DNA of 64,000 bases from Candidatus Oxydemutatoraceae bacterium (GTDB taxonomy: Bacteria > Pseudomonadota > Gammaproteobacteria > Poriferisulfidales > Oxydemutatoraceae): positions 276,924 through 340,923 of the forward strand of contig OZ245010.1 in the NCBI GenBank assembly GCA_965223735.1, given 5' to 3'. Below are positions 589 to 57,410 of this stretch, piece after piece. Both the position numbers and the translations under genes were made by a program. A model generated the notes under the pieces. The model searched no databases. It saw only the letters and a program-made list of their open reading frames with translations, and had not been told where the DNA came from. Positions within the stretch are counted from its first letter, which is position 1. Each line of letters begins with the position of its first letter.

Positions 589-618
589 TAAGTCTGTTCA
601 GCATGATTTGTAGATTTT

Positions 619-967: not shown

Positions 968-1082
968 CCGACACGCCGCCGCGTTTGAGCGCAGCGGACG
1001 CCGGTGAAACGCCTTGACCGGGCGAGGCGATTTCCGGGATGGATGTACCATGCTCAAAAATCGCTTTTTTCCACCGAAGTGA

Positions 1083-2087: not shown

Positions 2088-2091
2088 TGCG

Positions 2092-3057: not shown

Positions 3058-4907
3058 CGGCGATGAGTGGGTTGCCGCAGACCGCCCCGGATTTTGACGT
3101 GCAGGATTTCCTGCGCAACCTGACGCACAAGCCGGGGGTCTATCGGATGCTCGACGCAGGAGGCGAGATTCTTTACGTCGGCAAGGCGAAGGACCTGAAG
3201 AAACGTGTTACGACTTATTTCCGAAAGCAGAGTTGGGGGACGAAAACGCAGTTGATGATGCAGCAACTGCGCCGCGTCGAGATTACCGTCACCGCGACCG
3301 AAGCCGAGGCGTTGCTGCTCGAGAACAACCTGATCAAGGAACACCGTCCGCGTTACAACGTGCTGCTTCGGGACGACAAAAGTTATCCCTACATCCGCAT
3401 CACCGACGGCACGTTTCCGCGGCTCACCTTTTATCGCGGTTTCCGCAAACAGCCCGGGCGCTATTTCGGTCCCTATCCGGGGGTTGGCGCGGTGCGTGAG
3501 ACGCTGAACCTGCTGTTCAAGCTGTTCAGGTTGCGTCAATGCGACGACAGTTTTTTTAAAAACCGCACGCGCCCGTGTTTGCAATACCAGATCAGGCGTT
3601 GCAGCGCGCCGTGCGTCGGTCTGATCGGTGAAGATGCGTACCGCGACGACCTCGCGCTCGCAGTCGAGGTGTTGTCTGGCAACGGGGGCCGGGTGATCGA
3701 GACTCTGGTCGAACGCATGGACGGCGCGTCGCAACTCAGGGACTATGAGCGCGCGGGGCGATGCCGCGATCAGATCCGGGCGTTGCGGGTAATGTCGGAG
3801 CAGCAGCGCGTGAGCGCCGACAAGGGCGACACCGACATCATCGCGTGCAGCGTCAAGGGTGGCAGTGTCTGCGTGCAGGTGTTCAACGTGCGCGCGGGGC
3901 TGAACATCGGCAACCGCGCATATTACCCGACGTTGCCGCACGACGAAGTCGGTGCGGGTGAATTGTTGACCGCTTTTATCGGGCAGTATTACCTGGCGCG
4001 GCAGGTGCCGCAGGAGTTGGTCGTCAGTCATGCACCCGACGACGCGCCGGCTCTGCGGGCGATGCTTGAACACAAGGCCGGACGCAAGGTGGTGCTGACA
4101 ACGGTGGTGCGCGATGCGAAACGCAAATGGCTCGACTTTGCAATCGACAACGCCGCGCTCGCGCTCGACGCGAGGCTGTCGTCGAAAGCTGGCGTGCGAA
4201 AGCGACTGACGGCGTTACAGGAGATGCTTGACCTCGAGGAGATCCCGGTACGCATGGAATGTTTTGACATCAGTCACACGCAGGGTGAGGCGACGGTCGC
4301 CTCGTGCGTGGTGTTCGGCGCCGACGGCCCGCTGAAATCCGAATACCGGCGCTTCAACATAGAAAATGTGACAGCAGGTGACGATTACGCCGCGATGCGT
4401 CAGGCGATTGATCGGCGCTACCGCAGGTTGGTTGCGGGTGAAGGCAAGTTGCCCGACGTGTTGTTCATAGACGGCGGCAAAGGGCAGGTCAGGCGTGCGT
4501 GCGAAGTTCTGCAGGAGTTCGGCGTGGTTGACACGGCGGTGGTCGGCGTTGCTAAGGGGCCGCAGCGGAAGCCCGGCATGGAGACGCTGCTGCTCGCCAA
4601 CGGCGATCGGCTGGTTACGCCGGACGCTGACTCGGCGGCGCTGCATCTGATACAGCAGATACGCGATGAAGCGCACCGTTTTGCCATTGCCGGGCACCGT
4701 CGCCGCAGAGCCGCCCGGCGCAACCGCTCGCCGCTTGAGAATATCCCGGGACTTGGCCCGAAACGCCGCCGGCAATTGCTGAAGCATTTCGGCGGCCTAC
4801 GCGGAATTAATCGCGCGAGCGTCGAAGAGCTTGGCAAAGTGTCCGGTATCAGCGGACGTCTCGCCGAATCGATCTACGAGACCTTGCACACCGAGGGTTG
4901 GCAATGA
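3054..4907 (+). CDS. uvrC: Excinuclease ABC subunit C (UvrC)
   Basis: 617 aa. The N-terminal GIY-YIG segment ([25 protein letters not shown]) and C-terminal RNaseH-like/HhH regions are present. The ATG overlaps the fabH stop (ATGA). Confidence 0.93.
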
Positions 4908-5455
4908 TCAATTTGCCGACCGTATTGACCTTAACGCGCATCGTGCTCATTCCACTGCTGATCGTGGCGTTTTACCTCCCGCTGTGGTGGAGCGGCCCGG
5001 CTGCCGCCGCGGTTTTTACGCTCGCCGCGCTGACTGACGCGCTCGACGGTTACCTCGCGCGCCGCACGCGGAAGACAACGCGTTTCGGCGCGTTTCTTGA
5101 CCCGGTCGCCGATAAGCTGATCGTCGCGGCGGCGCTGGTCCTGGTCATTGAACGCGCCGAGACTTGGGTGGTCACGGTGCCGGCGCTGGTGATCATCGCG
5201 CGCGAGATCGCGGTGTCGGCGTTGCGTGAATGGATGGCCGAGGTCGGCGACAGCCGCGCGGTCGCTGTTACCTTTCTCGGGAAGTTAAAGACCGTCATGC
5301 AGATGGCGGCGATCATCGCGCTGCTTTTGAATCAACCGGTATTCGGCCTGCCGGCGTTTGAGATCGGAGTGCTGCTGCTGTACACGTCGGCAATCCTGAC
5401 CGTGTGGTCGATGCTGGTTTACCTGCTGGCGGCGCGCAGGCATTTTCCGACCTGA
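4898..5455 (+). CDS. pgsA: CDP-diacylglycerol--glycerol-3-phosphate 3-phosphatidyltransferase (PgsA)
   Basis: 185 aa with the CDP-alcohol phosphatidyltransferase motif (DxxDGxxARxxxxxxxxGxxxDxxxD: DALDGYLARR...GAFLDPVADK). It overlaps the uvrC end, as in the enterobacterial uvrC-pgsA arrangement. Confidence 0.92.
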   Translation: MAMINLPTVLTLTRIVLIPLLIVAFYLPLWWSGPAAAAVFTLAALTDALDGYLARRTRKTTRFGAFLDPVADKLIVAAALVLVIERAETWVVTVPALVIIAREIAVSALREWMAEVGDSRAVAVTFLGKLKTVMQMAAIIALLLNQPVFGLPAFEIGVLLLYTSAILTVWSMLVYLLAARRHFPT

Positions 5456-8256: not shown

Positions 8257-9141
8257 ATGAAAATCCTTATCAATTATGCGACTCCAAACTTCGCTACCGT
8301 CCGCAAGTTGAACAGCGCGACGGGGCTTTCGGCAGGCGAGTTTGAAAAAGTCATTGAATATTCGCCGGATGACCTTGACGAGGCTTTTCGGCAATCAAAT
8401 GAATCTATTCTGAACATGGCAAGAGGGGCAGGCTGTTGGCTCTGGAAGCCTTATATCATCAAGGAATCCCTGAGAAGCATGAAAGCCGATGACTTTTTGT
8501 TTTATGCTGACGCAGGCAGTGTTTTCACCGGCCCCGTCGAGCCGCTAATCAGAGTGATGCAACAAACGGATCAGAGCGTGATTGCTTTCAGGAGCAATCA
8601 GATCGAACATGTACGAACGAAAAGAGATGCGTTCATTTTGATGAGGTGCGATACGGTTGAGTATGCCGATACGTATCAAGTGGAAGCCGGTTTTTCCTTG
8701 TGGAGGAAAACGGCATTCAGCATGAGATTGGTCAACGAGTGGCTATCCTACGTTCAGGACGAGAGGGTCATTACTGACATGCCTAATCAATGCGGCAAGG
8801 GAAATTATCCGGGATTCAAGGAGCACCGGTACGACCAGAGTATATGGAGTCTCTTATGCAAAAAACATCAGGTGTTGATCCATAGAAGAATTTACACATA
8901 CAAAATACAAAGCAGGGGTTTACATCACGGTGATGAAGATCCGAATTCCACATCCCCCTGCTTTGTTTTTGTTCATAGAAACAATTTAAAAGAGGTACTT
9001 AGATTTTACCTGACCGCCCCATTGAAGTTCCGTTTAAAATTTCCGGTTTTCAAGGACATAATTTTCGATCCGAGGTTTGTGCTGGTTAAAGAGTTCGTTA
9101 AACAGTTGCTTGTGAAGGTGGCGCCGCGGATTTTTCTGTAA
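8257..9141 (+). CDS. Hypothetical protein, possibly a nucleotide-sugar transferase-like enzyme; lies in a lower-GC segment
   Basis: A 294-aa ORF with an AT-rich codon composition that contrasts with its flanks. No secure family assignment was possible by eye. The motif FLFYADAGSVF is a possible DxD-like site. Confidence 0.5.
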   Translation: MKILINYATPNFATVRKLNSATGLSAGEFEKVIEYSPDDLDEAFRQSNESILNMARGAGCWLWKPYIIKESLRSMKADDFLFYADAGSVFTGPVEPLIRVMQQTDQSVIAFRSNQIEHVRTKRDAFILMRCDTVEYADTYQVEAGFSLWRKTAFSMRLVNEWLSYVQDERVITDMPNQCGKGNYPGFKEHRYDQSIWSLLCKKHQVLIHRRIYTYKIQSRGLHHGDEDPNSTSPCFVFVHRNNLKEVLRFYLTAPLKFRLKFPVFKDIIFDPRFVLVKEFVKQLLVKVAPRIFL

Positions 9142-9244: not shown

Positions 9245-9602
9245 TGGTGGAGGCGGCGGGAATCGAACCCGCGTCCGCAAATTTTCCGCCTTCGGCACTA
9301 CATGCTTAGTCTCGCGCTTAATTTGACCTGCCGTGCCCGGCGAGACGGGGCAGACCGGCAGGCGGTCCCGCTAGAAGTCTGACAGATCGTTCGCGGGCAC
9401 TCCGATCCGTGAGCCTGTAAGTATGACCCTCGTTACGCAGTCACAGGCACCTGTCGTGCGAGGGGCGTGGCCGGTTTTTTAGGCCGCCAGTGCGTAGTTG
9501 TCTTCGTTGGCAACTATTGGTTTGCAGTTTGTTTTACGAGTACACCGCAAACTCGGCATGCACCTCAGGGTTCGCAATCCACGTCGAAGCCGGATCGCCC
9601 CC
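9245..9602 (-). ncRNA. ssrA: tmRNA (SsrA), ~358 nt
   Basis: On the reverse strand the 5' end is GGGGGCGATCCGGCTTCGACGTGGATTGCGAACCC... and the 3' tRNA-like end is ...GCGGGTTCGATTCCCGCCGCCTCCACCA. The internal tag reading frame is GCC AAC GAA GAC AAC TAC GCA CTG GCG GCC TAA ([10 protein letters not shown]), preceded by the resume signal CAAUAGUU. Confidence 0.92.
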
Positions 9603-9645: not shown

Positions 9646-12600
9646 ATGATAGCCGCCTTGATGCAGGTTTTTTTCGGTCCCCAGGCTCATTCAGAATCCG
9701 ACCGTCAGCGGTTGCTTCGGCGGATACGCGCGAATGGCGCGTCGGCCGAGACTCTCCACGCCTGCCTGCTATATTGTCTCGACATTGAAACCGCGCTCGA
9801 CGAAGCGGATACCGCAAAGCTTCGTTTCCTGCTCGGTTGCATCGACGAAGTCGCTCCCGCTGAAGGCATGCAGTTGCGCGTGTTGCCGAGAGTCGGCACG
9901 ATTTCGCCGTGGTCAAGCAAGGCGACCGATATTCTGCGTATTGCTGGCCTTTTGAATGTCAGGCGGATTGAGTGCGGGCGGCACTATACCCTCGAAGGCG
10001 GGCCTCTGAGCGATGAGCAACGCGCCGCTGTCGCCGATTTGCTCAGCGACCGCATGACCGAGCAGGTCTGCGGCGTCAGCGATGACGATATCGCCGCGCT
10101 GTTTGCCGCGCCTGCGCCGCGCCCGCTCGAAGAAATCGCCCTCGGTTCCGCGCCCGTGAGCGCGCTGGCTGACGCCGGTCGCAGGTTCGGCCTCGCCCTG
10201 TCCGACGATGAGATTGATTACCTCGCCGGGCATTACCGGCGCCTTGCCCGCTCGCCGACCGACGCCGAGTTGATGATGTTCGCCCAGGTCAACTCGGAAC
10301 ATTGCCGACATAAAATTTTCAACGCCACGTGGACGCTCGACAGGCGCAGGCAGGACGCAAGTCTGTTTGACATGGTGCGTCATACGAGCATGTGCGCGCC
10401 AGCGGGCGTGCTGGTTGCCTACGACGACAATTCGGCTGTGATTGAAGGCGCGCGGGGGGTGCGCTGGCAGGCCGACCCGGCGACGCGCCGGTACGGTTAC
10501 GTCGCCGAACCATTGCCGATCCTGATGAAAGTGGAAACCCACAACCACCCGACGGCAATCTCGCCTTTTCCGGGCGCGGCGACCGGTTCGGGCGGCGAGA
10601 TCCGCGACGAAGTCGCGACCGGCCGCGGCGGGCGTCCGAAAGCCGGGTTGTGCGGTTTCAGCGTATCGGATCTGCGTCTGCCGGATGCCCCGCGCGCCTG
10701 GGAGGCGGCTGAAAGCAGGCCGCCGTGGATCGCGTCGCCTTTGCAGATCATGCTCGAGGCGCCGATCGGTGCGGCGACATTCAACAACGAATTCGGCCGT
10801 CCCTGTCTCGCCGGCTACTTCAGGACTTTGGAATGCCGCAGCGATGGGATACGGCGCGGGTACCACAAGCCGATCATGGTCGCCGGCGGTTTCGGCAATC
10901 TGCGCCGCGTTCACGTGAATAAGCGGAAGTTTCCACCGCACACGCCGATCGTCGTGCTCGGCGGCCCGGCGATGCTGATCGGTCTCAGGGGCGGTACCGC
11001 GTCCTCGCGGGGCGGTGGTGATTGCGGCGAGGCGCTTGACTTTGCTTCAGTGCAGCGTGGCAACGCCGAAATGCAGCGTCGCTGCCAGGAAGTGATCGAG
11101 CAAAGTACGGCGCTGGGGGAACATAACCCGATCCTCGCGATCCACGACGTCGGTGCAGGAGGGCTGTCCAACGCGGTGCCGGAATTGATCGCCGGAGCGG
11201 GTGTTGGCGGGCGCTTTGAATTACGTGATATTCCTAGCGCCGACAAAGGAATGTCGCCGATGGAGATCTGGTGCAATGAGGCGCAGGAGCGATATGTCGC
11301 GGCGGTGGCAGCCTTGGATCGTTTCATTGCGATCTGCGGGCGCGAGCGCTGTCCCGTGGCGGTGATCGGTATGGCAACCGAAGGCGACCGGCTCGAATTG
11401 CAAGACCGTCTGTTCGGCGCTGAGGTGATCTCAATCGCTCTGCCGACATTGCTTGGAGAAGTTCCGAAAGTTCATAAGGATATAGCTATAACTTCTTGTG
11501 ATAAAAAGACTATTGACACCCATGGCATCACGGTGGAGACCGCCCTCGAGCGCGTGCTCGCTTTGCCGGCGGTCGGCTCAAAGTCGTTTTTGATCACCAT
11601 CGGCGACCGCACCGTCGGTGGTCTCGCGGTGCGCGACCAGATGGTCGGTCCCTGGCAGGTGCCGGTCGCGGATTGTGCAGTCTGTGCGGCGGATTTCGTG
11701 CATTACGCGGGCGAGGCGATGGCGATGGGGGAGCGTGCGCCGCCGGCGGTGTTTGACGCGCCCGCGTCAGGTCGTCTCGCAGTTGCGGAAGCGGTGACCA
11801 ACCTGCTGGCCGCCGACGTGCGCACGCTGTCCGATATCCGCCTGTCGGCGAACTGGATGGCGGCTTGTGGCGACGCCGGGGATGACCTCGCTTTGTTCCG
11901 TACGGTGCAGGCTGTCGCCGGGGAGCTGTGCCCCGCGCTCGGCATCGCGATCCCGGTCGGCAAGGATTCGTTGTCGATGCAGACCGTCTGGCGGGCTGAG
12001 GAGCAAGCGGCGGGGCAGGATGGCAACGTTCGGGAGGAACGGGTCAGGGCGCCGTTGTCGCTGATCGTGTCGGCGTTTGCCCCGGTCGGCGACGTGCGCC
12101 GTACCTGGACACCGCAGTTGACGCCGCGCGGAGACTGCCCTTTGTTCCTGTTCAACCTGTCTGGCGGAAAGCGGCGGCTCGGTGGCTCGGCGTTGGCGCA
12201 GGTCTTCAACCTCGACGGTGGCCCCTGTGCCGATCTTGACGATCCGGTGCGCCTCAAACGCTTCTCTGAGCTGCTTGCGGCCCTGCGGGAAAAGGAGGCG
12301 GTGCTTGCGTACCACGACTGCTCGGACGGCGGGCTTTTTGTGACCTTGTGCGAAATGGCGTTTGCCGGTCACTGCGGACTTGAAGTCACGCTCGACGCGC
12401 TCGGCGGCGAGGCCTTGTCGGCGCTGTTCACCGAAGAGCCCGGCGCGGTGTTGCAGGTTGCTCCTGGAGCGGCGGATACGATGACGGCGCTGGCTGAGCA
12501 GTACGGTCTCGGCGACGTCTGTTTTCCGCTCGGTCGTGCGGACGGCGGCAAAGTCGTTCGTATCAGCCGGGGGGATCAGGTCTGGCGCTGGGACCTGATG

Positions 12601-47213: not shown

Positions 47214-47407
47214 ATCAGGAATTACTCGATATTCTGGTCTGTCCGGTTACCAAGGGCCCTCTGATCTATGACCGCGAACGTGGCGAATTGATCTCGCTGT
47301 CGGCGCGGCTGGCGTACCCGGTGCGCGACGAGATACCGGTAATGCTCGAAGACGAGGCGCGGTGGATCTCCCAGGAAGAATATGAGCGCTACGACCGGCA
47401 GCGCTGA
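47210..47407 (+). CDS. ycaR: Trm112/YcaR-family small protein (UPF0434)
   Basis: A GTG start overlaps the lpxK stop. (V)[28 protein letters not shown] is the Trm112-like zinc-ribbon-like motif, in the conserved lpxK-ycaR-kdsB order. Confidence 0.8.
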
Positions 47408-48125
47408 GCCGTTCAGAGTCGTCATTCCCGCGCGCCACGATTCGACGAGACTTCCGGGCAAGCCCCTGCGCATGATCGGCGCCAGACCGCTGATCCGCCA
47501 CGTTTATGACAACGCCTGCCGCAGTGGCGCGGAGCAGGTCGTCGTCGCGACCGACAGCGAAAAAGTCGCAGAGTGTATTCGAGGCGCAGGCGGCAAAGTG
47601 CAGATGACCTCGCCCGATTGCCGCTCGGGTAGCGACCGCATAGCCGAAGCTGTCGCTGCAATGCAGTGGCCGAAAGAGGCTATCGTTGTGAATATTCAGG
47701 GAGACGAACTGTTTCTCGCGCCGGCGGACGTTTGTACCGTAGCCGAGGCGCTGGTGCGTTTTCCGCAGGCGGCGATGGCGACTTTGTCGGCGCTGCTCGC
47801 GCCGGAACATCTCGATGACCCCAGCGTCGTTAAGGTGACGACCGACGATCGGGGTATGGCACTGCATTTCAGCCGCGCCCCGATCGTGAATGGCGACCGG
47901 CGCCATATCGGCATTTATGCCTACCGCTGCAGTTACCTTCAGCGTTTCACGCGGTTACCGGCGCCGGGCATTGAACGCAGGGAACGGCTTGAGCAGTTGC
48001 GCGCGCTGTTTCACGGCGATCTGATCCGCGTTGACGAAGCCGTGTCCGACGTCGTGCTGAGTATCGACACCGAGGACGACCTGCGCGCGGCGCAGAAATT
48101 ACTCAGCGGTGAAAACCCCGTATAA
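47382..48125 (+). CDS. kdsB: 3-deoxy-manno-octulosonate cytidylyltransferase (CMP-Kdo synthetase) KdsB
   Basis: [17 protein letters not shown]...VNIQGDE is colinear with E. coli KdsB. Confidence 0.9.
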
Positions 48126-48140
48126 AGGTCTGGTTCAACG

Positions 48141-49403
48141 ATGAAAAAGAGAAAAAAACAACCCCGCGCATTCAGATCTGTTTTGTTGGCGGTCTCGGCA
48201 ATTCTGTCGATGGCCCTGGCGGGCATTTATACCTCCTGGCGCTCCCAGGCCACTGCTGTTTCATACGAACTGAGCGATGAAAAAACAGTGCGATCCTGGA
48301 CGATCTCTGAAAAGACACCGCGCTACATTACACCCGACGGGCTGAAAATAGCCGCGCAAGAAAAAACCTTTCTGATAAGTCCCGAAGTGCGGGGAACGAA
48401 AGGCGCCGCTCTATATTGGGGCAATTTCCCCTACGTCAAACTGCACCTCACCCCGCAGGCGGAGGAATACCTAATGTATTTGGTATGGATACTTGATAAA
48501 AACAGGAACAAACAATACGTTCGTTCCTTCACGGTGCCGGCGATGGCCGCCGAGGTATTGATTGACGTCCGGCAACACGAGCCGACAAAAGGTCAGTTCG
48601 GATATCCCTGGGATTTCCCGCCGCTTGAAAAAATACCCATCGGGCGCGTCGGGTTGGTATTCGGAAACACCATTGAAATCAGGCGGATCGAATTGCTTTC
48701 CAGCCTCGGGCTGTTTCAATTCGCAAAACTGTTGGGAATTCAGTACTGGCAACCCGAGCCGATAGGAGCGTATTCCATCAACAATTACTACGGCAACGAA
48801 ATATTCGGAACGCCGCTGGTTGCCGCATCGGGAATTGTTTTTTTCATTTTCCTCATGCTGTTTATATGGTTGCAGAGGAAACCCAAAAGCAAATTCAGAT
48901 TGCCGTTGTTATGGGCGATGTTTGCTTGCTTCGCGATATGCAATCTGCCGTTCGTGCATACATTATGGGAGGAGGCCAAGGCGGGTACCGAAGTTTCCGC
49001 CTGGCACGCTGACCGCTACGACGAATATCGCTCGCGCTTTAATTCGGAATTTGCCGACCTGGACCGGGCCTTTCGCACCCACGTGCCCGCCGGGTCGCGC
49101 GTGGCGTTTCCTCTTTCAGAGAAAAAGCTGGTCAATGGGGAGATTAACTGGATATGGTTTTTGTACTTCGGGCCGTATGTCAACTACACCAACCGGGATT
49201 ATTATTCTTCCACGGGGAAACAGCGTTCCGGCATAACCAAAAAGACCGAATACGTTTTCTATTATTACCCCAGAAAATTAATTTACAACGAACAGAACAA
49301 TACCCTGCGCGAAGCTGATTACCCGCAGGCTCCCCCATACAGAACGCGGACGGTTGCCGATATATCAGAGCACGCCAAGATCCTGAAGATCATCCGTGAC
49401 TAG
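48141..49403 (+). CDS. Hypothetical membrane protein (N-terminal anchor, large Tyr/Trp-rich extracytoplasmic domain, internal TM pair), first gene of a lower-GC island
   Basis: A 420-aa ORF with no family recognised by eye. Its start is 15 nt after the kdsB stop. The codon composition is AT-richer than the flanking LPS genes. Confidence 0.55.
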   Translation: MKKRKKQPRAFRSVLLAVSAILSMALAGIYTSWRSQATAVSYELSDEKTVRSWTISEKTPRYITPDGLKIAAQEKTFLISPEVRGTKGAALYWGNFPYVKLHLTPQAEEYLMYLVWILDKNRNKQYVRSFTVPAMAAEVLIDVRQHEPTKGQFGYPWDFPPLEKIPIGRVGLVFGNTIEIRRIELLSSLGLFQFAKLLGIQYWQPEPIGAYSINNYYGNEIFGTPLVAASGIVFFIFLMLFIWLQRKPKSKFRLPLLWAMFACFAICNLPFVHTLWEEAKAGTEVSAWHADRYDEYRSRFNSEFADLDRAFRTHVPAGSRVAFPLSEKKLVNGEINWIWFLYFGPYVNYTNRDYYSSTGKQRSGITKKTEYVFYYYPRKLIYNEQNNTLREADYPQAPPYRTRTVADISEHAKILKIIRD

Positions 49404-50853
49404 CGTTCTCTCAATTGCCCTGTTCACGCAACTGCTGCTTGTATTAAGCGGCCTGGCAGTGTTGCAACTTGTCAACGGTCGCGAGCGCATTCAAATCTGG
49501 TGGCTGGTTCCCTACGCCTGGGGGGTGGGTTCAGTGCTGCTGTTCATCGCCGGGTACGCGCTTGTGCCGCCGGGACATCTGGCGCATGACTGGCATCTGG
49601 TCGTTGCCGGCGGCATGGCAGTGTTGATCGTCGCCGGTGCGATCGTGTATTGCTTCGGGCGGGCCGACTGTGGACAGAATGACCGGCCTTCCGCGATTTC
49701 TGTTCGCTGGTACGACCTGCCGATCATCGCGCTGATATTGGTTCAGGTCGGTCTCGTTACTTACATCTGCATGGTCAATTCAGTCATTGATTCCGACGCC
49801 ACTTCTATGCGCGGCTATATGTCCTTGGCAAAAAAGATAGGAGAAGGAATCAGGGTGTCTGAATTTTTGGGGGATGAGGCGGTAAGGCACAGCAAATATG
49901 CCTCTTTCTCGCCGCCGCTTTTACCGGCATTTATCAGGATGTTTCTCGACAGATGGCACGACAGCGTAATCACGTTGCCCTGGTTGCTCGCCTGGCTGTT
50001 CAGCGGGGGCATTGCGTATGTCACCTGCTGCAAACTGAGCCGCCATTTTACGGCGTCTCTCGTTTGCGCCTATTTGTTCCTGTCTTTACCTCTGGCGTCG
50101 ATCCACGTGTTCAGAAGCGGGTTTTTAGACCTGCTGGTGATGTATTTCTTTTGTGCCGCTACCAGCGTGCTCAGTCTTGCTTTTTTAAGAGGAGGAAAAA
50201 TAAAGCCCGCGTGGGTGGTGGTGGCGGTCATCGCGGTGGTCGGTAGCGCACTTTGCAAATCGGAAGGCAAGTTATGGGCGGTGTTGCTGGCCGTCATCGG
50301 AGTGAATTACTGTCTGCATGTCTATGGAAATATCTCGTGGAAAAAACTGATCGGCACGCAGGTGTTATTGGCGGCCGTTTTATTTCTGGTTTACCACTTT
50401 TTCCTGGGCAAGAATTTTTTCAATAGTTTTGAGGACCAGCGGCTTCAGGCCTTGGCCCCGCATTCCTTTGACAAAAAAGCCTTCGGCGCAACGCTGAGCG
50501 CTATCTACGGTTTCAGCAACTTCGGCATCTGGTGGTGGGCTTTCAGCATGGTCGGGGTCTATCTGCTGATTGCAAGAAAAGTGCCGGAGAACGCTAAAGC
50601 GGTGATTTTTTTGTATTTTTCCATGTTTTTAGCTATTATTTACTTCGCGAACTTCACTGAAAACGTCAAATACACGTTGATCGGTACCAACGTCAGCAGG
50701 TTCTCACTGCAGATCGCCGGCGTGCTGCTCCCCGTGTATTGCGCCGCAATCCTGATCTGGCTACCCTTCTCCGGGGAAAATACTGTTTTTGCGAGGCGAC
50801 GTTCGAAAAACCACAAAATGACGAACACCCGGAAAATGTATCCATCTAAATGA
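49396..50853 (+). CDS. Polytopic (>=10 TM) membrane protein, candidate GT-C-fold glycosyltransferase (ArnT/PMT-like) assigned mainly by context
   Basis: 485 aa. The hydrophobic helices are separated by short loops, and one larger loop carries DSD...RGY. The ORF overlaps the upstream and downstream ORFs by 8 and 4 nt, so it is operonic. Confidence 0.4.
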   Translation: MTSVLSIALFTQLLLVLSGLAVLQLVNGRERIQIWWLVPYAWGVGSVLLFIAGYALVPPGHLAHDWHLVVAGGMAVLIVAGAIVYCFGRADCGQNDRPSAISVRWYDLPIIALILVQVGLVTYICMVNSVIDSDATSMRGYMSLAKKIGEGIRVSEFLGDEAVRHSKYASFSPPLLPAFIRMFLDRWHDSVITLPWLLAWLFSGGIAYVTCCKLSRHFTASLVCAYLFLSLPLASIHVFRSGFLDLLVMYFFCAATSVLSLAFLRGGKIKPAWVVVAVIAVVGSALCKSEGKLWAVLLAVIGVNYCLHVYGNISWKKLIGTQVLLAAVLFLVYHFFLGKNFFNSFEDQRLQALAPHSFDKKAFGATLSAIYGFSNFGIWWWAFSMVGVYLLIARKVPENAKAVIFLYFSMFLAIIYFANFTENVKYTLIGTNVSRFSLQIAGVLLPVYCAAILIWLPFSGENTVFARRRSKNHKMTNTRKMYPSK

Positions 50854-51815
50854 ACGACCGTATCGCCATTTTACTGCCGTGTTTTAACGAAGAGGCCGCT
50901 ATCGGACAGACGATCGGCGAATTCCACGCGGCGTTGCCGAACGCCGTCATTTATGTGTTCGATAATCATTCGACCGACAGAACCCGGGAAGTCGCCGAAG
51001 CGCAAGGCGCCACTGTCTTTCAGGAGATGCATTTGGGTAAAGGGCACGTCATCCGCCGGATGTTTGCCGACGTGGAAGCGGACATTTATGTGCTGGCCGA
51101 CGGGGACGCCGCCCACGACGCTTCCGCCGCGCCCGAAATGATAGAGCGCCTGCGCGAGGAAAACCTCGACATGGTCGTCGGCGCCCGCGACTTTACGAAA
51201 ACAGGCCATCGTTTCGGGCACTTATGGGGAAATCAGATTTTCAACAAAATCGTGGGAATGCTGTTCGGCAAAAAGTTTACCGATATATTCTCCGGTTACC
51301 GTGTATTGTCGAGGAGATTGGTCAAGTCGTTTCCGGCGCTTGCCACCGGGTTTGAGATAGAAGCCGAGTTATCGATACACGTGCTTGAATTGCGATTGCC
51401 CGCGACGGAAATAAGTACCTGTGCAAGACCACGTCTTGAAGGGTCTTACAGCAAATTGAAAACCGTACGGCACGGCCTGATCATCTTGACAAGAATTGTG
51501 GGCCTGTTCATGCAGATAAAACCGTTTGTTTTTTTCGGTGTTATCACTGCGGCATTATTCATTTTGGGGTTGATCTCGGGTTATCCGGCGATTGCTGTTT
51601 TCCTGGAAACTGGATTGGTCCCTTATTTGCCCCGGGCAGTACTCGCCGCCTCTTTGATGATACTCGCCTCGTTAAGTCTGGCGTGTGGCCTGATCCTTTA
51701 TCATGTAAGTCAAGCCAGACTTGAATCCAGGCATCTGCATTACCTGAAGATGAAGAATAAGATCTTGGCCCGACAGGATCCCGGGGCAGTTTCAAGTTGG
51801 GAAATGAAAAAATGA
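50850..51815 (+). CDS. Family-2 glycosyltransferase of the polyprenyl-phosphate sugar synthase type (ArnC/GtrB/DPM1-like) with two C-terminal TM helices
   Basis: ILLPCFNEEAAIGQTI...VFDNHSTDRT...LADGDAAHD (DxD)...VVGAR. The C-terminal hydrophobic hairpin is FVFFGVITAALFILGLI / AVLAASLMILASLSLACGLILY. Confidence 0.75.
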   Translation: MNDRIAILLPCFNEEAAIGQTIGEFHAALPNAVIYVFDNHSTDRTREVAEAQGATVFQEMHLGKGHVIRRMFADVEADIYVLADGDAAHDASAAPEMIERLREENLDMVVGARDFTKTGHRFGHLWGNQIFNKIVGMLFGKKFTDIFSGYRVLSRRLVKSFPALATGFEIEAELSIHVLELRLPATEISTCARPRLEGSYSKLKTVRHGLIILTRIVGLFMQIKPFVFFGVITAALFILGLISGYPAIAVFLETGLVPYLPRAVLAASLMILASLSLACGLILYHVSQARLESRHLHYLKMKNKILARQDPGAVSSWEMKK

Positions 51816-52540
51816 ACAATTTTCAGGGAGGTGACGGTACCCGTTATTCCGGCAGAGATGAGTTGGAACACATGGAAAAGTTCATGCCGAATTACAATCG
51901 GTCGATTGTCAAAAAAATTCTCAAGAATATGAATGCCGGTTCCGCCATTCTGGAATTCGGCGCGGGGATCGGCACGCTCGCGACGATCTACAAAGATCAT
52001 ACCGGGGTCAGCCCCGTCTGCCTGGAAATTGACAATGACTTGAAAAGCGTTCTAACCGAAAGGGGGTTCAGGGTGTTTGGCGGAACAGACGAGGTCGATG
52101 AAGTGTTTGACGGGGTTTACTCGTCCAACGTGCTCGAGCATATTGAAGACGACGTCGCCGCCCTGAAGAAGATCAGGGGTCTACTGAAGCTGGGGGGGCA
52201 TCCTCTGGTTCTTTATGTTCCCGCCTTTCAATGCCTGTTTTCAGGTATGGACGAAGCGGTGGGGCATTATCGGAGATACGGAAAAAATGAACTGATTTCT
52301 AAATTAAATAACGCCAGCTATACGGTCACTAACGTACATTTTTCAGACTGCATTGGTTTCTTCACGCTGCTTTTTGTGCGTTTGTCCGGGTACAATAAGT
52401 TGTCGGGCTTGGGCAGTCCAGGAAGTTTAATCTTCTACGACAAGTTCATTTACCCGATAAGTTGCCTTTTTGATCTGCTGGGCTTTCGCTTTCTATTCGG
52501 GAAGAATCTTCTCGTCAGGGCGGTTGCAAGGAATTCATGA
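51797..52540 (+). CDS. Class I SAM-dependent methyltransferase
   Basis: ILEFGAGIGTL is the motif I glycine loop, and the acidic residue lies in VCLEIDNDL. About 245 aa, with the probable start at ATG 51812. Confidence 0.7.
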   Translation: MGNEKMNNFQGGDGTRYSGRDELEHMEKFMPNYNRSIVKKILKNMNAGSAILEFGAGIGTLATIYKDHTGVSPVCLEIDNDLKSVLTERGFRVFGGTDEVDEVFDGVYSSNVLEHIEDDVAALKKIRGLLKLGGHPLVLYVPAFQCLFSGMDEAVGHYRRYGKNELISKLNNASYTVTNVHFSDCIGFFTLLFVRLSGYNKLSGLGSPGSLIFYDKFIYPISCLFDLLGFRFLFGKNLLVRAVARNS

Positions 52541-52758
52541 CCCGCATGGAGCTTTTCGCAAGCGGGTGGTCGCCGTGCCGTGCGGTTGATCCAGCGGAAA
52601 TGAATGTTCAGGCCGAAGAAAGCGGCGGCGTGCCACTGTCCCGATTGTTGTCCGGGCAATTGCAATAGCCGGCAATGGCGCGGCGGGTTTGATGAATTGA
52701 CATCCCGCCGGCCCGTGCAATACCCGCCCGCCCGATATGCGGCGGTCGAAGCAGGCTC

Positions 52759-52787
52759 TTGAAAAACGCGCTGTTTTTGGTTAAATA
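52759..52787 (+). promoter_or_regulatory. Candidate sigma70 promoter for the ABC-2/GldG-like operon (TTGAAA - 17 bp - TAAATA)
   Basis: cTTGAAAaacgcgctgtttttggtTAAATAtgcc lies about 45 nt upstream of the ATG at 52833. Confidence 0.35.
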
Positions 52788-52832
52788 TGCCGCCGTGCCT
52801 CTTCCAGACCGGAAACTCCGACGCGCCAAACG

Positions 52833-53747
52833 ATGATTAAAGTCAGCGATCTTAGCAAACGCTTCGGTGCCTTTGTCGCCGTCGATCACCTTGATTTTGA
52901 GGTGGGGACCGGTGAGGTGCTTGGTTTTCTCGGCCCCAACGGCGCGGGCAAGTCAACAACAATGAAAATGGTTACCGGCTTTATGAAACCGTCGTCCGGA
53001 CGCATTGAAATCTGCGGCCACGACATTGCAAGCCATGCGACTGACGCCAAACGGATCATCGGCTATACACCTGAAGGCGCCCCAGCGTACGGGGAAATGA
53101 CGGTACAGGAATTTTTAAGGTTCATTCTCGCGGTCAGGCAAGTGGACACGAAGAAAGGCAGGCAGGGGTTTGCCGACGTGGCCGAGAAACTCGAACTCGA
53201 ACCAGTGCTGCACCAGCCGATAGAAACATTGTCAAAAGGATTCAAGCGCCGGGTGGGATTGGCGCAGGCGCTGATACACGACCCGAAAGTGCTGATCATG
53301 GACGAACCGACCGACGGCCTCGATCCCAACCAGAAGCATCAGGTCCGGCAACTGATCAATTCGCTGACGGCCGACAAGATCGTGGTGATCTCAACTCACA
53401 TTCTGGAGGAAGTCACCGCCGTCTGTACCCGTACGCTGATCATCTCAGCCGGCAAGTTACTGGTGGATGCGACTCCCGACGAGTTGCTCGCGCGTTCGCG
53501 CTTTCACAACGCGGTAAGCATGGTCACGCAGGATCCGCAGGTCGCGGTTCAGTTGCAGACGCTTGCCCAGGTTAAATCAGTTGAAGACAATGGCCGTTTA
53601 TTTGCATTCCCGGCCGGCGCTGAACCTCTGTATCCCGCGGTCGATCGCCTGATCAAGGAGAAGAACCTGCCGGTCAGTGATCTGCGCATGGAAACCGGAC
53701 ATCTCGACGAGGTTTTCAGGGAAGTGACCCGGGGAGAGATGTCGTGA
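52833..53747 (+). CDS. ABC transporter ATP-binding protein (ABC-2/GldA-like subfamily)
   Basis: Walker A GPNGAGKST, the signature LSKGFKRRVGLAQAL and Walker B LIMDEPTDGLD. Confidence 0.88.
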   Translation: MIKVSDLSKRFGAFVAVDHLDFEVGTGEVLGFLGPNGAGKSTTMKMVTGFMKPSSGRIEICGHDIASHATDAKRIIGYTPEGAPAYGEMTVQEFLRFILAVRQVDTKKGRQGFADVAEKLELEPVLHQPIETLSKGFKRRVGLAQALIHDPKVLIMDEPTDGLDPNQKHQVRQLINSLTADKIVVISTHILEEVTAVCTRTLIISAGKLLVDATPDELLARSRFHNAVSMVTQDPQVAVQLQTLAQVKSVEDNGRLFAFPAGAEPLYPAVDRLIKEKNLPVSDLRMETGHLDEVFREVTRGEMS

Positions 53748-54478
53748 AAGCGATGCTGGCAATTTTCAGAAGGGAGCTCGGCAGCTATTTTGCAACGCCG
53801 ATCGCTTATGTGTTCATCGTGATCTTTCTCGCGCTGAGCGCGGCGATGGCTTTTTACCTCGGCGGCCTTTACGAAAACAGGCAGGCGAGCCTGACTGCGT
53901 TTTTCATCTATCACCCATGGCTGTACCTGTTCCTGGTGCCCGCCATTTCAATGCGCCTGTGGGCCGAGGAGCGAAAGAGCGGCAGCCTCGAATTGCTGAT
54001 GACGCTGCCGGTCACAACGCCGCAGGCGGTAATCGGGAAATTTCTTGCGGCGTGGAGCTTCACCACGATCGCCCTGCTTTTGACTTTCCCGATCTGGATC
54101 ACGGTGAATTACCTGGGCAACCCCGACAACGGCGTGATCGTCTCCGCTTATATCGGGAGCCTGTTGATGGCCGGGGGATTCCTCGCGATCGGCTCGAGCA
54201 TATCGGCGATGACAAAAAACCAGGTGATCGCGTTCATCATCAGCGTTGTTGTGTGCTTCTTGTTCCTGCTCAGCGACTTTCCACTGGTGCTGAACCCGCT
54301 GCGCGCGTGGATGCCGCAGTTGTTGATTGACACCATCGCCTCCCTGAGCTTCATCAACCACTTCGGCTCGATCAGCAAGGGGGTTATCAACCTGCGCGAC
54401 CTCGTCTATTTCGGCCTGATGATCGGGTTCTGGCTCAGCGTGAACTCGGTCGTGATCGAGATGAAGAAGAGTAGCTGA
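53744..54478 (+). CDS. ABC-2 family transporter permease (GldF-like)
   Basis: 244 aa with six TM helices, translationally coupled to the ATPase. Confidence 0.8.
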   Translation: MKAMLAIFRRELGSYFATPIAYVFIVIFLALSAAMAFYLGGLYENRQASLTAFFIYHPWLYLFLVPAISMRLWAEERKSGSLELLMTLPVTTPQAVIGKFLAAWSFTTIALLLTFPIWITVNYLGNPDNGVIVSAYIGSLLMAGGFLAIGSSISAMTKNQVIAFIISVVVCFLFLLSDFPLVLNPLRAWMPQLLIDTIASLSFINHFGSISKGVINLRDLVYFGLMIGFWLSVNSVVIEMKKSS

Positions 54479-54495
54479 AGCGGGCAGGGGAAGAC

Positions 54496-56412
54496 ATGAA
54501 AACAGGCACCGATCTTTCCAGGGGGACGCTGCTCGCGACGCTGACCGTCCTGTTTCTCGCGCTGACGATACTGAACAACGCGTTACTGCGCGGGGTGCGC
54601 CTGGACCTGACGGCGAACAACCTCTATACCTTGTCCGAAGGCACCCGCAACATCCTGGAACAGATACAAGAACCGATCAACTTATACCTGTTCTTCTCGG
54701 AGAAGGAGACGAAGAACCTGCCGCTTCTCAGGAATTATCACAACCGCGTGAAAGAGATGCTCGAGGAATATCGTCTGCTCTCGGGCGGCAAGTTGAACGT
54801 GCGCTACGTCAACCCTGAAGCGTTTTCGGAAGAGGAGGACAGGGCGACGCAGTTAGGCTTGCAGGCGGCAACCGTCAAAGGCAGGGACAAGATCTATTTC
54901 GGCCTCGCCGGCACCAACGCGCTCGACACTACCGAAGTGATCCCATTCCTGCAATCCAACCGCGAGGCGTTTCTCGAATACGATCTCGGCAAACTTATCT
55001 ACAGTCTAGTGCACGTGAAGAAACCGGTGCTCGGTCTGATGACCGACCTGCCGATGTACCCGACGCAACTCGATCCCGCAACCGGACGCATGAACCGGTC
55101 GTGGATCATCACCGAGCAACTCGAACAGCTGTTTGACGTTCAACTCACCTTTACCGATACCGACGAGATCGCCGAAGAGGTGGATGTGCTGATGGTCGTG
55201 CACCCGAAGGGACTGCCGGAGAAGACGATGTATGCGATCGATCAGTTCATCATGCGCGGTGGCAGGGGCTTGTTTTTTATCGATCCCCACGCGGACGCCG
55301 ACCAGGTGCCTCAGCCTGCCGACACGCCGTTGCAGGACCCCAAAGCCAGGGGTTCGAGCCTGAACCGCCTGTTCCGCGCCTGGGGGTTCAGCGTGGATGA
55401 CGATACGATCCTCGTTGACAACGCGAGGGCGCTGCCGGTGACGATTCAGGCAGGGCAGCCGCCGGTTCCTCACCCCGCGGTACTCAGCATGCGGTCGCGG
55501 GACTTCAACAACGACGACGTCGTGATGGATACGCTTGAGTCCGTTAACTTTTACCTCGTGTCGCACGTGCGCACCGAGGTGGACGCGGAAATCGAGATGA
55601 CGCCGCTGGTGCGGACGAGCGCACAGACGATGCCGGTTTCTATACAGCGCTTCCGCTTCATTCCGCACCCACGCAGTTTGCTTCAGGGTTTCACTCCGAC
55701 GGGTGAACGCTATCCGATAGCGGCGCGCATCCAGGGGGCGTTCAAGAGCGCATTTGACGGGCGGCCCGAGGTCGAGGCGGAGAAAGAAGCCAGCGACGAC
55801 GAAAAGACCTCGAGCCGGCCCGACAAACAGCATATCGCCGCGACTGAGGAACCCGGGATCATTGCGGTCGTCGCCGACACCGACGTGCTGACCGACCGGA
55901 TGTGGGCGCAGACGCAGATGTTTTTCGGCCAGCGCATCGTGCAGCCTTACGCAAACAACCGCGATTTTATTATCAACTTGGTCGATAACCTGTTCGGCAG
56001 CAGCGACTTGATCAGTATCCGCAGCCGCGCCAGCTATTCCTACCCGTTTACCCGGGTACAGAAGATCGAGGAGCAGGCCACCCGAAAGTATCAGGCGACC
56101 GAACAAAGCCTGCAAAATAAATTGAGGGAAACCGAGGCTAAATTACAGGAACTCCAACAGCAGCGTTCCGACAAAAAATCGGCATTGCTGACGGCCTCGC
56201 AGCGCGCGGAGGTTCGTAAATTCCGTGAGAAAAAGGTCGAGATCCGCAAGAAACTGCGTAACGTACGTCACCAACTGGTCAAGGACATTGAAAATCTGGG
56301 AACCCGGCTCAAGATGATCAACATCATTACAATGCCGGTGGTCATCACCGGGATCGCACTGCTGGCCGGCTTTCTCAGGGTGCGGCGGCGCAAGCGGGGA
56401 GAAGCGGTATGA
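54496..56412 (+). CDS. GldG-like ABC-transporter auxiliary protein (N- and C-terminal TM anchors, large periplasmic domain, coiled coil before the last TM)
   Basis: 638 aa with the overall GldG/DUF4350-type architecture. The C-terminal Lys/Glu-rich coiled coil (EQSLQNKLRETEAKLQELQQQ) is followed by a TM helix. Confidence 0.7.
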   Translation: MKTGTDLSRGTLLATLTVLFLALTILNNALLRGVRLDLTANNLYTLSEGTRNILEQIQEPINLYLFFSEKETKNLPLLRNYHNRVKEMLEEYRLLSGGKLNVRYVNPEAFSEEEDRATQLGLQAATVKGRDKIYFGLAGTNALDTTEVIPFLQSNREAFLEYDLGKLIYSLVHVKKPVLGLMTDLPMYPTQLDPATGRMNRSWIITEQLEQLFDVQLTFTDTDEIAEEVDVLMVVHPKGLPEKTMYAIDQFIMRGGRGLFFIDPHADADQVPQPADTPLQDPKARGSSLNRLFRAWGFSVDDDTILVDNARALPVTIQAGQPPVPHPAVLSMRSRDFNNDDVVMDTLESVNFYLVSHVRTEVDAEIEMTPLVRTSAQTMPVSIQRFRFIPHPRSLLQGFTPTGERYPIAARIQGAFKSAFDGRPEVEAEKEASDDEKTSSRPDKQHIAATEEPGIIAVVADTDVLTDRMWAQTQMFFGQRIVQPYANNRDFIINLVDNLFGSSDLISIRSRASYSYPFTRVQKIEEQATRKYQATEQSLQNKLRETEAKLQELQQQRSDKKSALLTASQRAEVRKFREKKVEIRKKLRNVRHQLVKDIENLGTRLKMINIITMPVVITGIALLAGFLRVRRRKRGEAV

Positions 56413-57410
56413 AACCCGCACATTTGACCTTGGCGGCGGCCGCGCTTGCAGTCATCGGCGTGGCGGTCTGGCTGCTCAGCCCAGAGCAGGAGGAGACAGA
56501 CGCCGCGTTGTTCCCTGAATTGACGCTCGAAGTGCTGAACAAGGTCAACCACATTGAAGTCACCGAACGCAGCACGTCCGTGATCAGCGTCTATCTGGCC
56601 GACGACGGCCTGTGGCGCGTGCCTGAGCACCACGACTACCCAGCGGACACCGTCAAAGTCCGCCAACTGCTGTCCGATATTAAAGACGCGGAAAAGGTCG
56701 AGCGGAAAACGGCGTCTCCGGAACATTACGCGATACTCGGCGTGGCCGACCCCGTAGCGGAGGAAGGCGGTAAATTGCTCAGGTTCAGGGATGCGGATCA
56801 AACTTGGGGATTGATTGTCGGCAACCCGAGCCGGCAGGTGAGCCGCGGACAGTACGTCAGGAAGCCGGATGAAGCTGAAAGCTGGCTGGTCAACGTCAAC
56901 CTGCACCTGCCGGACACACCTTCAGAATGGCTCGACACCGAGGTTGTGCACGTTGAACCCAACGACGTTTCGACGGTGACGCTCAGCCACTCCGACGGTG
57001 AACCTTTTACCGTCGCACGTGGCACTGACGGACAGCTTGCGATCAGGGATCTGCCGCAGGGGCGTGTGCTGAAAGACGCATTTCGACTGAACCGTATCCT
57101 CTCGGCGACAGATTATCTGAAGTTCAAGCAGGTCTTTCCCCGCGGGAACAACGAGGTTCAACTGCCGAACCGGCACATCACGGCGCAACTGGCGACGCTC
57201 GACGGACTGACGCTGACGGTCAGAGCCTACAAGACCGAGGAGAACGACGCCTATTTCACGCTCGACGCCGACGGCACAAGCACGCAGGCGCAGACGCTCA
57301 AGCTGCGTCTTTCAAAGTGGCTCTACCAGGTCTCTGGTTCGGTTTATGAGAACCTCGACAAACGCCTCGACAATCTCCTGGAAGACGCTGCTGAAAACAA
57401 GGCGCCGTAG
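56409..57410 (+). CDS. DUF4340-like periplasmic protein (N-terminal TM anchor), the usual partner of GldG-like proteins
   Basis: 333 aa, overlapping the stop of the upstream gene. It is beta-rich with no recognisable catalytic motif. Confidence 0.6.
   Translation: MKPAHLTLAAAALAVIGVAVWLLSPEQEETDAALFPELTLEVLNKVNHIEVTERSTSVISVYLADDGLWRVPEHHDYPADTVKVRQLLSDIKDAEKVERKTASPEHYAILGVADPVAEEGGKLLRFRDADQTWGLIVGNPSRQVSRGQYVRKPDEAESWLVNVNLHLPDTPSEWLDTEVVHVEPNDVSTVTLSHSDGEPFTVARGTDGQLAIRDLPQGRVLKDAFRLNRILSATDYLKFKQVFPRGNNEVQLPNRHITAQLATLDGLTLTVRAYKTEENDAYFTLDADGTSTQAQTLKLRLSKWLYQVSGSVYENLDKRLDNLLEDAAENKAP

Follow-up and report, generated by a model that had tools for sequence, protein, structure and literature searches.

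Decorations of lipid A and of the lipopolysaccharide (LPS) core govern the charge of the outer membrane, resistance to cationic peptides and immune recognition. To our knowledge, those that depend on a lipid carrier are all made by ArnT/PMT-type glycosyltransferases of the GT-C class. In the Arn system, the undecaprenyl-phosphate L-Ara4N pathway, the lipid-linked sugar is made by ArnC, a family-2 glycosyltransferase (GT2) anchored in the membrane by its C-terminus, and is transferred to lipid A in the periplasm by the polytopic GT-C enzyme ArnT. Rhizobia possess RgtE, a bactoprenyl-phosphate galacturonic acid (GalA) synthase, together with the lipid A GalA transferases RgtD and RgtF, and such a system has also been predicted in Caulobacter and Aquifex. 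In the three-component GtrA/GtrB/GtrC system, which glucosylates O-antigen, and in the GT136 pentofuranose system, a donor synthase works with a small flippase and a polytopic transferase facing the periplasm (PMC11127046). Here we describe a block of four open reading frames (ORF1 to ORF4) that follows genes for lipid A and 3-deoxy-D-manno-octulosonate (Kdo) in a Candidatus Oxydemutatoraceae bacterium. The block lies in a 64-kb stretch of contig OZ245010.1, which was analyzed as a whole and is called the window hereafter. On balance, we favor the view that the block shares a transcript with the lipid A/Kdo genes and serves periplasmic glycosylation in the manner of the Arn, Rgt and Gtr systems, LPS being its most likely target. 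The scheme, a lipid-linked donor synthase paired with a GT-C transferase, is a known one: the block extends it and brings no new principle. An original prediction, made from the letters of the DNA, had proposed this logic of an undecaprenyl-phosphate sugar synthase and a periplasmic-face transferase, and it is supported by the class of ORF3 and by a remote link between ORF2 and the GT-C enzymes.

The block and the gene preceding it are as follows:

47382..48125, plus strand: kdsB, CMP-Kdo synthetase, above the curated cut-offs of TIGR00466 and NF003952 and with a Pfam CTP_transf_3 match.
48141..49403, plus strand: ORF1, 420 aa, the predicted partner subunit.
49396..49403, plus strand: stop/start overlap of ORF1 and ORF2, 8 nt, GTGACTAG.
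49396..50853, plus strand: ORF2, 485 aa, with about 13 transmembrane (TM) helices.
50850..51815, plus strand: ORF3, 321 aa, a GT2.
51812..52540, plus strand: ORF4, 242 aa (247 aa if it starts at the TTG at 51797), a predicted class I S-adenosylmethionine (SAM)-dependent methyltransferase.

All four of the packed, partly overlapping genes announced after kdsB are thus present. The junction sequence showed that ORF1 starts 15 nt after the kdsB stop codon, and the genes of the block overlap by 8 nt (ORF1/ORF2), 4 nt (ORF2/ORF3, ATGA) and 4 nt (ORF3/ORF4, ATGA). For ORF4, gene callers choose the ATG at 51812, not the TTG at 51797. The 8-nt overlap implies that synthesis of ORF1 and ORF2 would be translationally coupled.

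ORF2 can be read as a divergent GT-C-type transferase, the putative catalytic subunit of a family absent from curated libraries. At least 10 TM helices had been forecast for it. Hydropathy, the helices of an AlphaFold2 (AF2) model and the positive-inside rule gave about 13, with the N-terminus outside and the C-terminus inside; there are three additional TM helices at the N-terminus. The model had a predicted local distance difference test score (pLDDT) of 75.5 and a predicted template modeling score (pTM) of 0.78. A word-indexed search found 18 homologues of ORF2 among 5.8 billion proteins, and an exhaustive profile search yielded 368 cluster representatives at an expect value (E) ≤1e-3, 50 of them at ≤1e-30. 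Across 42 core-family sequences, D134 was invariant and D132 was conserved in at least 90%. Both belong to the motif D132-S-D134-A-T, located in the large loop that follows TM4. This D[SGA]DA[TA]-type motif marks the core family and occurs in nearly all full-length members, with few variants at the second or last position. The other invariant residues were R186/W187, H237, R240, K288, E290, R349, T421, N432 and R435. According to the AF2 helices and the positive-inside rule, the conserved polar residues all lie in predicted periplasmic loops.

The kinship with GT-C enzymes came through more distant relatives. Aligning the core family with a group of remote homologues, hhalign returned a probability of 100% (E 4e-43) over 443 columns, that is, the full length. 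PMT_2 was matched by 8 of the 76 members of this group (best E 6.9e-7), and the consensus of the group scored 32.8 bits, for a gathering score of 26.1, while E. coli ArnT scored 37.1 bits with the same model. The PMT_2-like stretch maps to ORF2 residues ~173–330 and the conserved Asp loop lies just upstream. Indeed, D134-A135 of ORF2 aligns with a conserved D-A of the remote group, also upstream of the PMT_2-like core. GT-C enzymes carry a catalytic acidic residue upstream of their conserved membrane core (PMC11127046, section 9). Because the consensus of full-length remote homologues passes PMT_2, the conserved residues are periplasmic and the Asp loop occupies this position, we took ORF2 to be of the GT-C type. 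From its context, namely the adjacent GT2 and the GtrA genes of relatives, ORF2 would use a putative polyprenyl-phosphate-linked sugar donor. Besides PMT_2, the remote-group consensus matched DUF6077, at 28.5 bits for a cut-off of 27, through its N-terminal TM helices.

Several observations weigh against this reading of ORF2. The protein itself matched neither PMT (PF02366) nor PMT_2 (PF13231) at E ≤0.01, whereas E. coli ArnT, the positive control, matched them at 2.4e-62 and 4.5e-9, respectively. It had no Pfam, NCBIfam or PDB sequence match either, and the family profile found nothing meaningful among PDB chains. The link to GT-C enzymes is transitive, through the remote homologues, and the Asp loop of ORF2 follows TM4, whereas that of canonical GT-C enzymes follows TM1. 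The GT-C-like character first proposed for ORF2 was therefore retained through its remote homologues, but not as a direct match to PMT or PMT_2. Comparing the family profiles with the single E. coli ArnT sequence, hhalign gave a probability of <1%, phmmer with ArnT returned noise only among the collected proteins, and no ArnT-like gene was found in 1.1 Mb of related loci. Foldseek searches of PDB and BFVD gave no significant match. The top PDB match, AftA (8if8_B), was suggestive but not significant (E 0.15, probability 0.82, template modeling score 0.30), and PglB ranked 38th.

Alternatively, ORF1 and ORF2 might be a polytopic envelope machine other than a glycosyltransferase, such as a ligase/polymerase, a transporter or a lipid-modifying enzyme, with the GT2 and the methyltransferase serving an unrelated pathway. 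ORF2 directly matches no curated family or solved structure, its fold search was insignificant, and the core-family consensus matches only DUF6541 (22.1 bits, cut-off 29) and MFS_1, both weakly. Moreover, the homologous pairs in three related loci (L002, L003 and L098) have no adjacent GT2. We nevertheless hold this explanation to be very improbable. It does not account for the homology, over the full length, to remote relatives with a consensus exceeding the PMT_2 cut-off, nor for the conserved Asp, Arg, Lys and His facing the periplasm, which are typical of GT-C active sites. In addition, co-evolving GT2 orthologues (61–64% identity) and GtrA genes occur in the same operons, and AftA and PglB were the sole related membrane enzymes among the ORF2 fold matches.

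A putative GT-C role for ORF2 gains a second actor in ORF1. In agreement with the large extracytoplasmic domain foreseen for this 420-aa protein, ORF1 has 3 TM helices in total and two large periplasmic parts. A basic cytoplasmic N-terminus is followed by TM1, a signal anchor (~9–34), a periplasmic beta-sandwich (~39–186), a TM hairpin (~210–275) with a positively charged cytoplasmic turn, and a C-terminal periplasmic domain. The latter was highly conserved in the family alignment, with the motifs SAWHADRYDEYRSRF, NWIWFLYY and YVFYYYP, and had no detectable relatives. No Pfam, NCBIfam or PDB sequence match was found for ORF1, and the family profile retrieved nothing meaningful among PDB chains. 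The AF2 model had a pLDDT of 68.7, and Foldseek matched its beta-sandwich to carbohydrate-binding modules (CBMs), namely CBM11/16/28, and to folds of the CIA30 type (E 1e-5 to 1e-3). Kinship with O-antigen ligases was considered and rejected, the sole signal being a consensus match to Wzy_C of 21.7 bits (cut-off 31.7) that covered the TM hairpin only.

ORF1 had been presented as an extra, unrecognized membrane protein. Its contigs, overlap and fusions instead made it a conserved core partner of ORF2. Eleven ORF1 homologues were found among the 5.8 billion proteins, and 7 of the 10 besides the query share contigs with ORF2 homologues. The 8-nt overlap is kept in seven sequence-distinct loci, namely the window, L002, L006, L090, L091/L092 (which carry the same gene and were counted once), L093 and L098. 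It reads GTGACTAG in the window, ATGAyTAG or GTGAyTAG in five gammaproteobacterial loci and ATGATTGA in the Eiseniibacteriota locus. The overlapping pair thus spans two phyla, being found in Gammaproteobacteria (Ca. Oxydemutatoraceae and metagenome-assembled genomes [MAGs] labeled "uncultured Chromatiales") and in a Ca. Eiseniibacteriota MAG. Furthermore, remote relatives of 790–900 aa are fusions of the two proteins, in both orders: ORF1-like then ORF2-like in P0127, P0133 and P0120, and ORF2-like then ORF1-like in P0176, P0173, P0163, P0155 and P0146. The halves not related to ORF2 aligned with the ORF1 family with an hhalign probability of 97.5% (E 7e-12, 298 columns). This Rosetta-stone evidence, that is, fusions and adjacency with a conserved overlap, indicates that ORF1 and ORF2 work as one enzyme, of which ORF1 would be the obligate partner. 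Two isolated cases were noticed along the way. P0101, a metagenomic protein of 379 aa, joins an ORF1-like periplasmic domain (profile positions 69–248) to the final third (profile positions 291–452) of an ORF2-like protein and may be a deletion chimera or an assembly artifact. At L005, positions 1–4955 hold the end of a gene with a predicted product of 13,978 residues, on the same MAG contig as an unlinked ORF1 homologue.

By analogy, ORF1 may be a glycan-binding subunit. In EmbC, AftD and GT136, the acceptor glycan is bound by CBMs fused to the enzyme (PMC11127046, section 10), and here the acceptor-binding role would apparently sit on a separate chain. The mycobacterial arabinosyltransferases AftA, AftD and EmbA/B/C resemble the pair in two respects: AftA was the best PDB fold match of ORF2, albeit not a significant one, and in EmbC and AftD periplasmic CBMs accompany a GT-C membrane core (PMC11127046). 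They differ in being single chains of 600–1400 aa, found in Actinobacteria and using a decaprenyl-phosphate arabinose donor. The GT136 enzyme ORF12 likewise bears a CBM that binds the acceptor glycan (PMC11127046), as ORF1 of the window may do. In the window, however, the CBM-like domain belongs to a distinct protein, one with three TM helices and a further conserved domain.

The two remaining genes of the block encode recognizable enzymes. ORF3 matched Pfam Glycos_transf_2 (PF00535) at 2.6e-14, above cut-off, and the AglJ model TIGR04182 at 1.1e-47 over positions 2–277 of 293. In translation, its DXD motif reads D84-G-D86. Two C-terminal TM helices (226–244 and 264–282) lie in a region through which the AglJ alignment runs. 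Over its full length, ORF3 thus resembles polyprenyl-phosphate sugar synthases such as AglJ and DPM1, and the GT2 with a C-terminal TM hairpin that had been predicted is confirmed. Dol-P-mannose synthase (DPMS) of P. furiosus (PDB 5mlz) was matched at 3.9e-8, and no named equivalog cut-off was reached among AglJ (162.8 bits for a cut-off of 325), Dol-P hexose transferase (54.5 bits for 375) and PpgS (53.7 bits for 370). The prediction that ORF3 is a polyprenyl-phosphate hexose synthase is well supported as a class assignment, the family models not fixing the sugar. Its resemblance to E. coli ArnC was lower (~20% identity, E 0.007), ORF3 being nearer to AglJ and DPMS.

ORF4 gave matches to Methyltransf_23 (38.8 bits, 9.8e-10) and Methyltransf_11 (28.8 bits), both above cut-offs, as well as to Methyltransf_12, which bears out the SAM methyltransferase of the original prediction; its suggested searches with PF00535 and with these methyltransferase models thus returned the families it had named. 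The GxGxG-type motif of the Rossmann-type SAM-binding domain reads EFGAGIG in translation, and the C-terminal third of the protein is hydrophobic or amphipathic. At least 3670 homologues were found, at ~45–53% identity. Homologues occur in LPS/glycan clusters (L094–L097), one of them following a 1230-aa GT4-GT9 enzyme near dTDP-sugar genes and another adjoining a GT2 and a polytopic protein. By these matches, ORF4 belongs among the class I SAM-dependent methyltransferases, in a large family that is frequent in glycan clusters. LmtA, the Leptospira lipid A phosphate methyltransferase, is an integral-membrane enzyme of the ICMT type. A role of this kind for ORF4 was dropped, ORF4 being a soluble-type class I enzyme.

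Two other loci hold traces related to ORF4. In L093, between the GT2 and hflC, positions 10570–10728 of the minus strand gave a 53-aa tblastn match to the ORF4 N-terminus (34% identity, E 1e-4), which may be the relic of a methyltransferase gene in a relative now without one. The closest ORF4 homologue (51% identity) lies in L097 (2548–6720), a locus interrupted by IS1595, IS21 and Mu-type transposases. Nearby are a GT2 sharing 33% identity with ORF3 and a polytopic protein of 418 aa that matched neither Pfam nor NCBIfam. L097 may represent a second, unrelated combination of a GT2, a polytopic protein and a methyltransferase. Homology of the 418-aa protein to ORF1 or ORF2 was rejected, no similarity having been found.

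To approach the acceptor, we turn to neighborhoods in eight sequence-distinct related loci, besides the window. Four independent MAG loci share one arrangement: between rnhB-dnaE and hflC-hflK-hflX lie a gnnA-like gene, a DegT aminotransferase gene, lpxB, in some cases a GtrA gene, then the ORF1 homologue, the ORF2 homologue and a GT2. The gnnA-like, DegT aminotransferase and lpxB genes directly precede the module in L006, L090 and L093. L002 is a variant, with lpxB, GtrA, a short-chain dehydrogenase/reductase (SDR) and a FAD oxidoreductase ahead of the ORF1-ORF2 pair. The best match of the gnnA-like gene was UDP-GlcNAc 3-dehydrogenase (1e-62), and UDP-GlcNAc 3-dehydrogenation is the GnnA reaction toward lipid A of the 2,3-diamino-2,3-dideoxy-D-glucose (GlcN3N) type (PMC7663294). 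Orthologues of ORF3 stand beside the pair at 61–64% identity in L093, L006 and L090 and at 46% in L091, and the pair of L004 is adjoined by a different GT2. Genes of the GtrA family occur in the modules of L002, L003, L091 and L093. By this comparison, the module sits beside lipid A genes at two sites, next to lpxB in relatives and next to lpxK-kdsB here. No ORF4-type methyltransferase gene was found beside the module in any of the eight.

Because of this recurrent synteny, lipid A or the inner core would most likely be the acceptor. The claim that the block decorates lipid A or the core was strengthened insofar as the module of relatives directly follows gnnA-gnnB-lpxB, while for the acceptor itself synteny is what points there. 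The Rgt systems offer a parallel, since in them a GT2 and a GT-C enzyme glycosylate lipid A in bacteria with GnnA/GnnB-made GlcN3N-type lipid A (PMC7663294), and the relatives of the present module follow the very same genes. Unlike ORF2, RgtD carries a PMT-family annotation (PMC7663294, Table 4), and the Rgt systems have no known ORF1-like subunit or methyltransferase. Arn, too, is alike in having genes tied to LPS functions, but the block has no sugar-tailoring genes of the ArnA/B/D type and no ArnE/F flippase, and it has a separate ORF1 and a methyltransferase.

Four points speak against an LPS acceptor or against the completeness of the module. In L003, L091, L004 and L098, the pair lies away from lipid A genes: it is accompanied by GtrA and a FAD oxidoreductase in L003, by GtrA and a GT2 amid transposases in L091, by nearby deacetylase, acetyltransferase and carbamoyltransferase genes in L004, and it stands alone in L098. 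No GtrA gene was found in the 64-kb window by tblastn with the GtrA of four relatives (gnnAB and lpxB were not found there either). Synteny with lipid A genes is no more than suggestive. Finally, the CBM-like domain of ORF1 would fit a polysaccharide acceptor better than lipid A itself.

The same machinery might act elsewhere, on O-antigen or another periplasmic or surface polysaccharide, as Gtr and GT136 do when they add side chains, or on a protein, as in Ppm1/Pmt, and we regard this as unlikely, though it deserves attention. The CBM-like domain does parallel the polysaccharide-binding CBMs of EmbC, AftD and GT136 (PMC11127046, section 10), several homologous pairs are not beside lipid A genes, and ORF4 homologues occur in O-antigen-like clusters with GT4/GT9 and dTDP-sugar genes. 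As for a protein, the PMT_2 relationship together with a DPMS-like GT2 recalls protein O-mannosylation. ORF3 is nearest to AglJ and P. furiosus DPMS, and the remote relatives of ORF2 match PMT_2, as would suit the dolichol-phosphate sugar pathways of Ppm1/Pmt or of archaeal AglJ/DPMS. These, however, glycosylate proteins, of which there is no sign here as acceptors, and ORF3 reaches 163 bits of the 325 set for AglJ. As for O-antigen, relatives of the module include a GtrA-family gene, as Gtr systems do, but the window has no flippase gene, and the neighbors are lipid A/Kdo genes instead of an O-antigen cluster or prophage. Moreover, no O-antigen polymerase, Wzx or ABC (ATP-binding cassette) O-polysaccharide exporter gene adjoins the module in the window. 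Also against this explanation, lipid A/Kdo genes immediately precede the pair in 5 of the 9 distinct loci and do so at two different chromosomal sites.

Under the preferred reading, that of an LPS-directed module, the following sequence of events can be proposed. At the cytoplasmic face, ORF3 would charge undecaprenyl phosphate with a hexose drawn from a nucleotide sugar, as its family resemblance suggests. ORF4, translationally coupled to ORF3 and endowed with a hydrophobic tail, may methylate the sugar while it is still lipid-linked or once it stands in the final product. The lipid-linked sugar would then be flipped across the membrane by a flippase encoded outside the window, the modules of relatives carrying a GtrA-family gene. 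ORF2, with its conserved Asp, Arg, Lys and His facing the periplasm, would move the sugar onto the acceptor at the outer face of the inner membrane. Its membrane partner ORF1 would contribute two periplasmic domains, a CBM-like one and a further conserved one, of the acceptor-binding kind found fused in EmbC, AftD and GT136 enzymes. The sugar added would thus be a hexose, possibly methylated.

A bolder version can be offered tentatively, and we lean against it. The ORF1/ORF2 family, in two-subunit or fused form, might glycosylate lipid A itself. For instance, a neutral or methylated hexose could cap the 1- or 4'-phosphate of GlcN3N-type lipid A or take its place, and the second domain of ORF1 would be an essential catalytic or lipid A-binding part. 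If this were true, ORF1/ORF2 would account for lipid A that is poor in phosphate and substituted with sugar in lineages without ArnT/RgtD-type enzymes.

Some relatives carry additional genes around the pair. An ORF2 homologue is found with GtrA and a PRK07208-type FAD oxidoreductase in L002 (563–3589) and L003 (9422–11326), and L002 also has an SDR epimerase/reductase. This oxidoreductase matches NF005545, a model named "hypothetical protein," at 741 bits. The AglJ-like GT2 is missing in both loci, and the oxidoreductase set may be a different route to a lipid-linked donor. A NodU-like carbamoyltransferase gene is next to or near the module in L090 (12028–13749, minus strand) and L004 (15233–17038, minus strand). 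L004 further encodes a polysaccharide deacetylase, an acetyltransferase and a SIS-domain protein. Lineages may differ in how they tailor the transferred sugar, with methylation here and perhaps carbamoylation or N-modification elsewhere.

We then considered the origin of the block. A drop in composition from the kdsB stop to about 52540 had been reported, and windowed GC located it as claimed: the lowest-GC 4.4-kb stretch of the 64-kb window begins at 48101, with the most deviant tetranucleotide composition there as well, and the drop stops at ~52540. The four genes have a GC of 0.48–0.52 and a GC at third codon positions (GC3) of 0.58–0.65, against 0.604 ± 0.038 and 0.735 ± 0.059 in the remaining 41 genes of the window (gene-wise GC z-scores −2.2 to −3.3). 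ORF4 is the lowest in the block (0.48). Relatives hold the module at another site (lpxB-hflC), and the copy of L091 sits amid transposases. In a scan of metagenome contigs with kdsB, none of 80 kdsB loci, whose kdsB was at best 49% identical, carried ORF1/ORF2 or the kdsB-to-ABC junction. Because of the low GC and GC3, the deviant tetranucleotides, the different site in relatives and the absence from these 80 distant loci, horizontal acquisition is plausible. Caution comes from the lack of mobility signatures and from the relatives, whose modules likewise lie 3–9 GC points below the flanking DNA. At the block borders, no integrase, transposase, tRNA or Rfam family was found; direct and inverted repeats there were of chance size only (14–24 nt), and terminators and promoters were not in excess. 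The nearest tRNA and tmRNA genes are ~39 kb away. Thus, of the horizontal acquisition first suggested, low GC and the different site in relatives remain as support, but no mobility genes, tRNA or flanking repeats accompany them.

Alternatively, the block could be an old, vertically inherited part of an LPS operon, lower GC being usual for membrane and surface-glycan genes. The clean borders would suit such an origin, as would genes that appear translationally coupled and begin 15 nt after kdsB, and a low GC that travels with the module in relatives. We see this as possible but the less probable account. GC3 and tetranucleotides deviate too, and the lowest GC belongs to the soluble methyltransferase, not to a membrane protein. 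The lpxB-hflC site of relatives, the transposases of L091 and the absence of the module from all 80 metagenomic kdsB loci, at most 49% identical in kdsB, also stand against it. Elsewhere in the window, the lowest GC of all genes (0.45, GC3 0.54) belongs to a 294-aa ORF (8257–9141, plus strand) with no Pfam match. It directly adjoins the tmRNA gene (9245–9602, minus strand), a classic target of integration, and may have entered there as a small insert.

The surroundings of the block were read on both sides. Upstream, kdsB is the final gene of an msbA-lpxK-ycaR-kdsB block, and the best matches of the upstream genes were ComEC, MsbA, LpxK, YcaR and KdsB. Curated cut-offs were exceeded by ComEC, LpxK (TIGR00682) and KdsB. 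MsbA (TIGR02203) scored 598 bits for a cut-off of 602 and YcaR 61 bits for 126. The gene order msbA-lpxK-ycaR-kdsB given in the original prediction therefore holds by best match for each gene, though MsbA and YcaR score under the curated cut-offs. Downstream, two features follow:

52541..52832, no strand: GC-rich spacer, 292 nt, where the low-GC block ends.
52833-57410, plus strand: gldA/gldF/gldG-like ABC system with a DUF4340 gene, identified by family matches.

Neither a convincing terminator or repeat nor an RNA family turned up in the spacer. The ABC-2 system scored under the gliding-motility equivalog cut-offs, and its GC (0.56–0.59) lies between that of the block and that of the remaining window.

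What appears new is the combination built upon a known scheme: a GT-C lineage that would have no curated family, a partner, obligate or fused, that carries a further conserved domain beside its CBM-like one, a repeated wiring to lipid A genes in uncultured Gammaproteobacteria, and a methyltransferase add-on in this genome. The core family matches no Pfam model, none of the members scanned matches an NCBIfam model, and remote relatives alone reach PMT_2. The few looked-up members that bear a source name are all called "hypothetical protein." Most likely, then, ORF1 and ORF2 form an uncatalogued two-protein enzyme with uncultured bacteria as its only known carriers. The module points to a second GT-C lineage outside every curated family. 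If confirmed, it would add a family at the CAZy level and provide a rare bacterial two-subunit GT-C enzyme whose natural fusions prove the partnership. It would also give a handle on the LPS structures of lineages known from metagenomes only.

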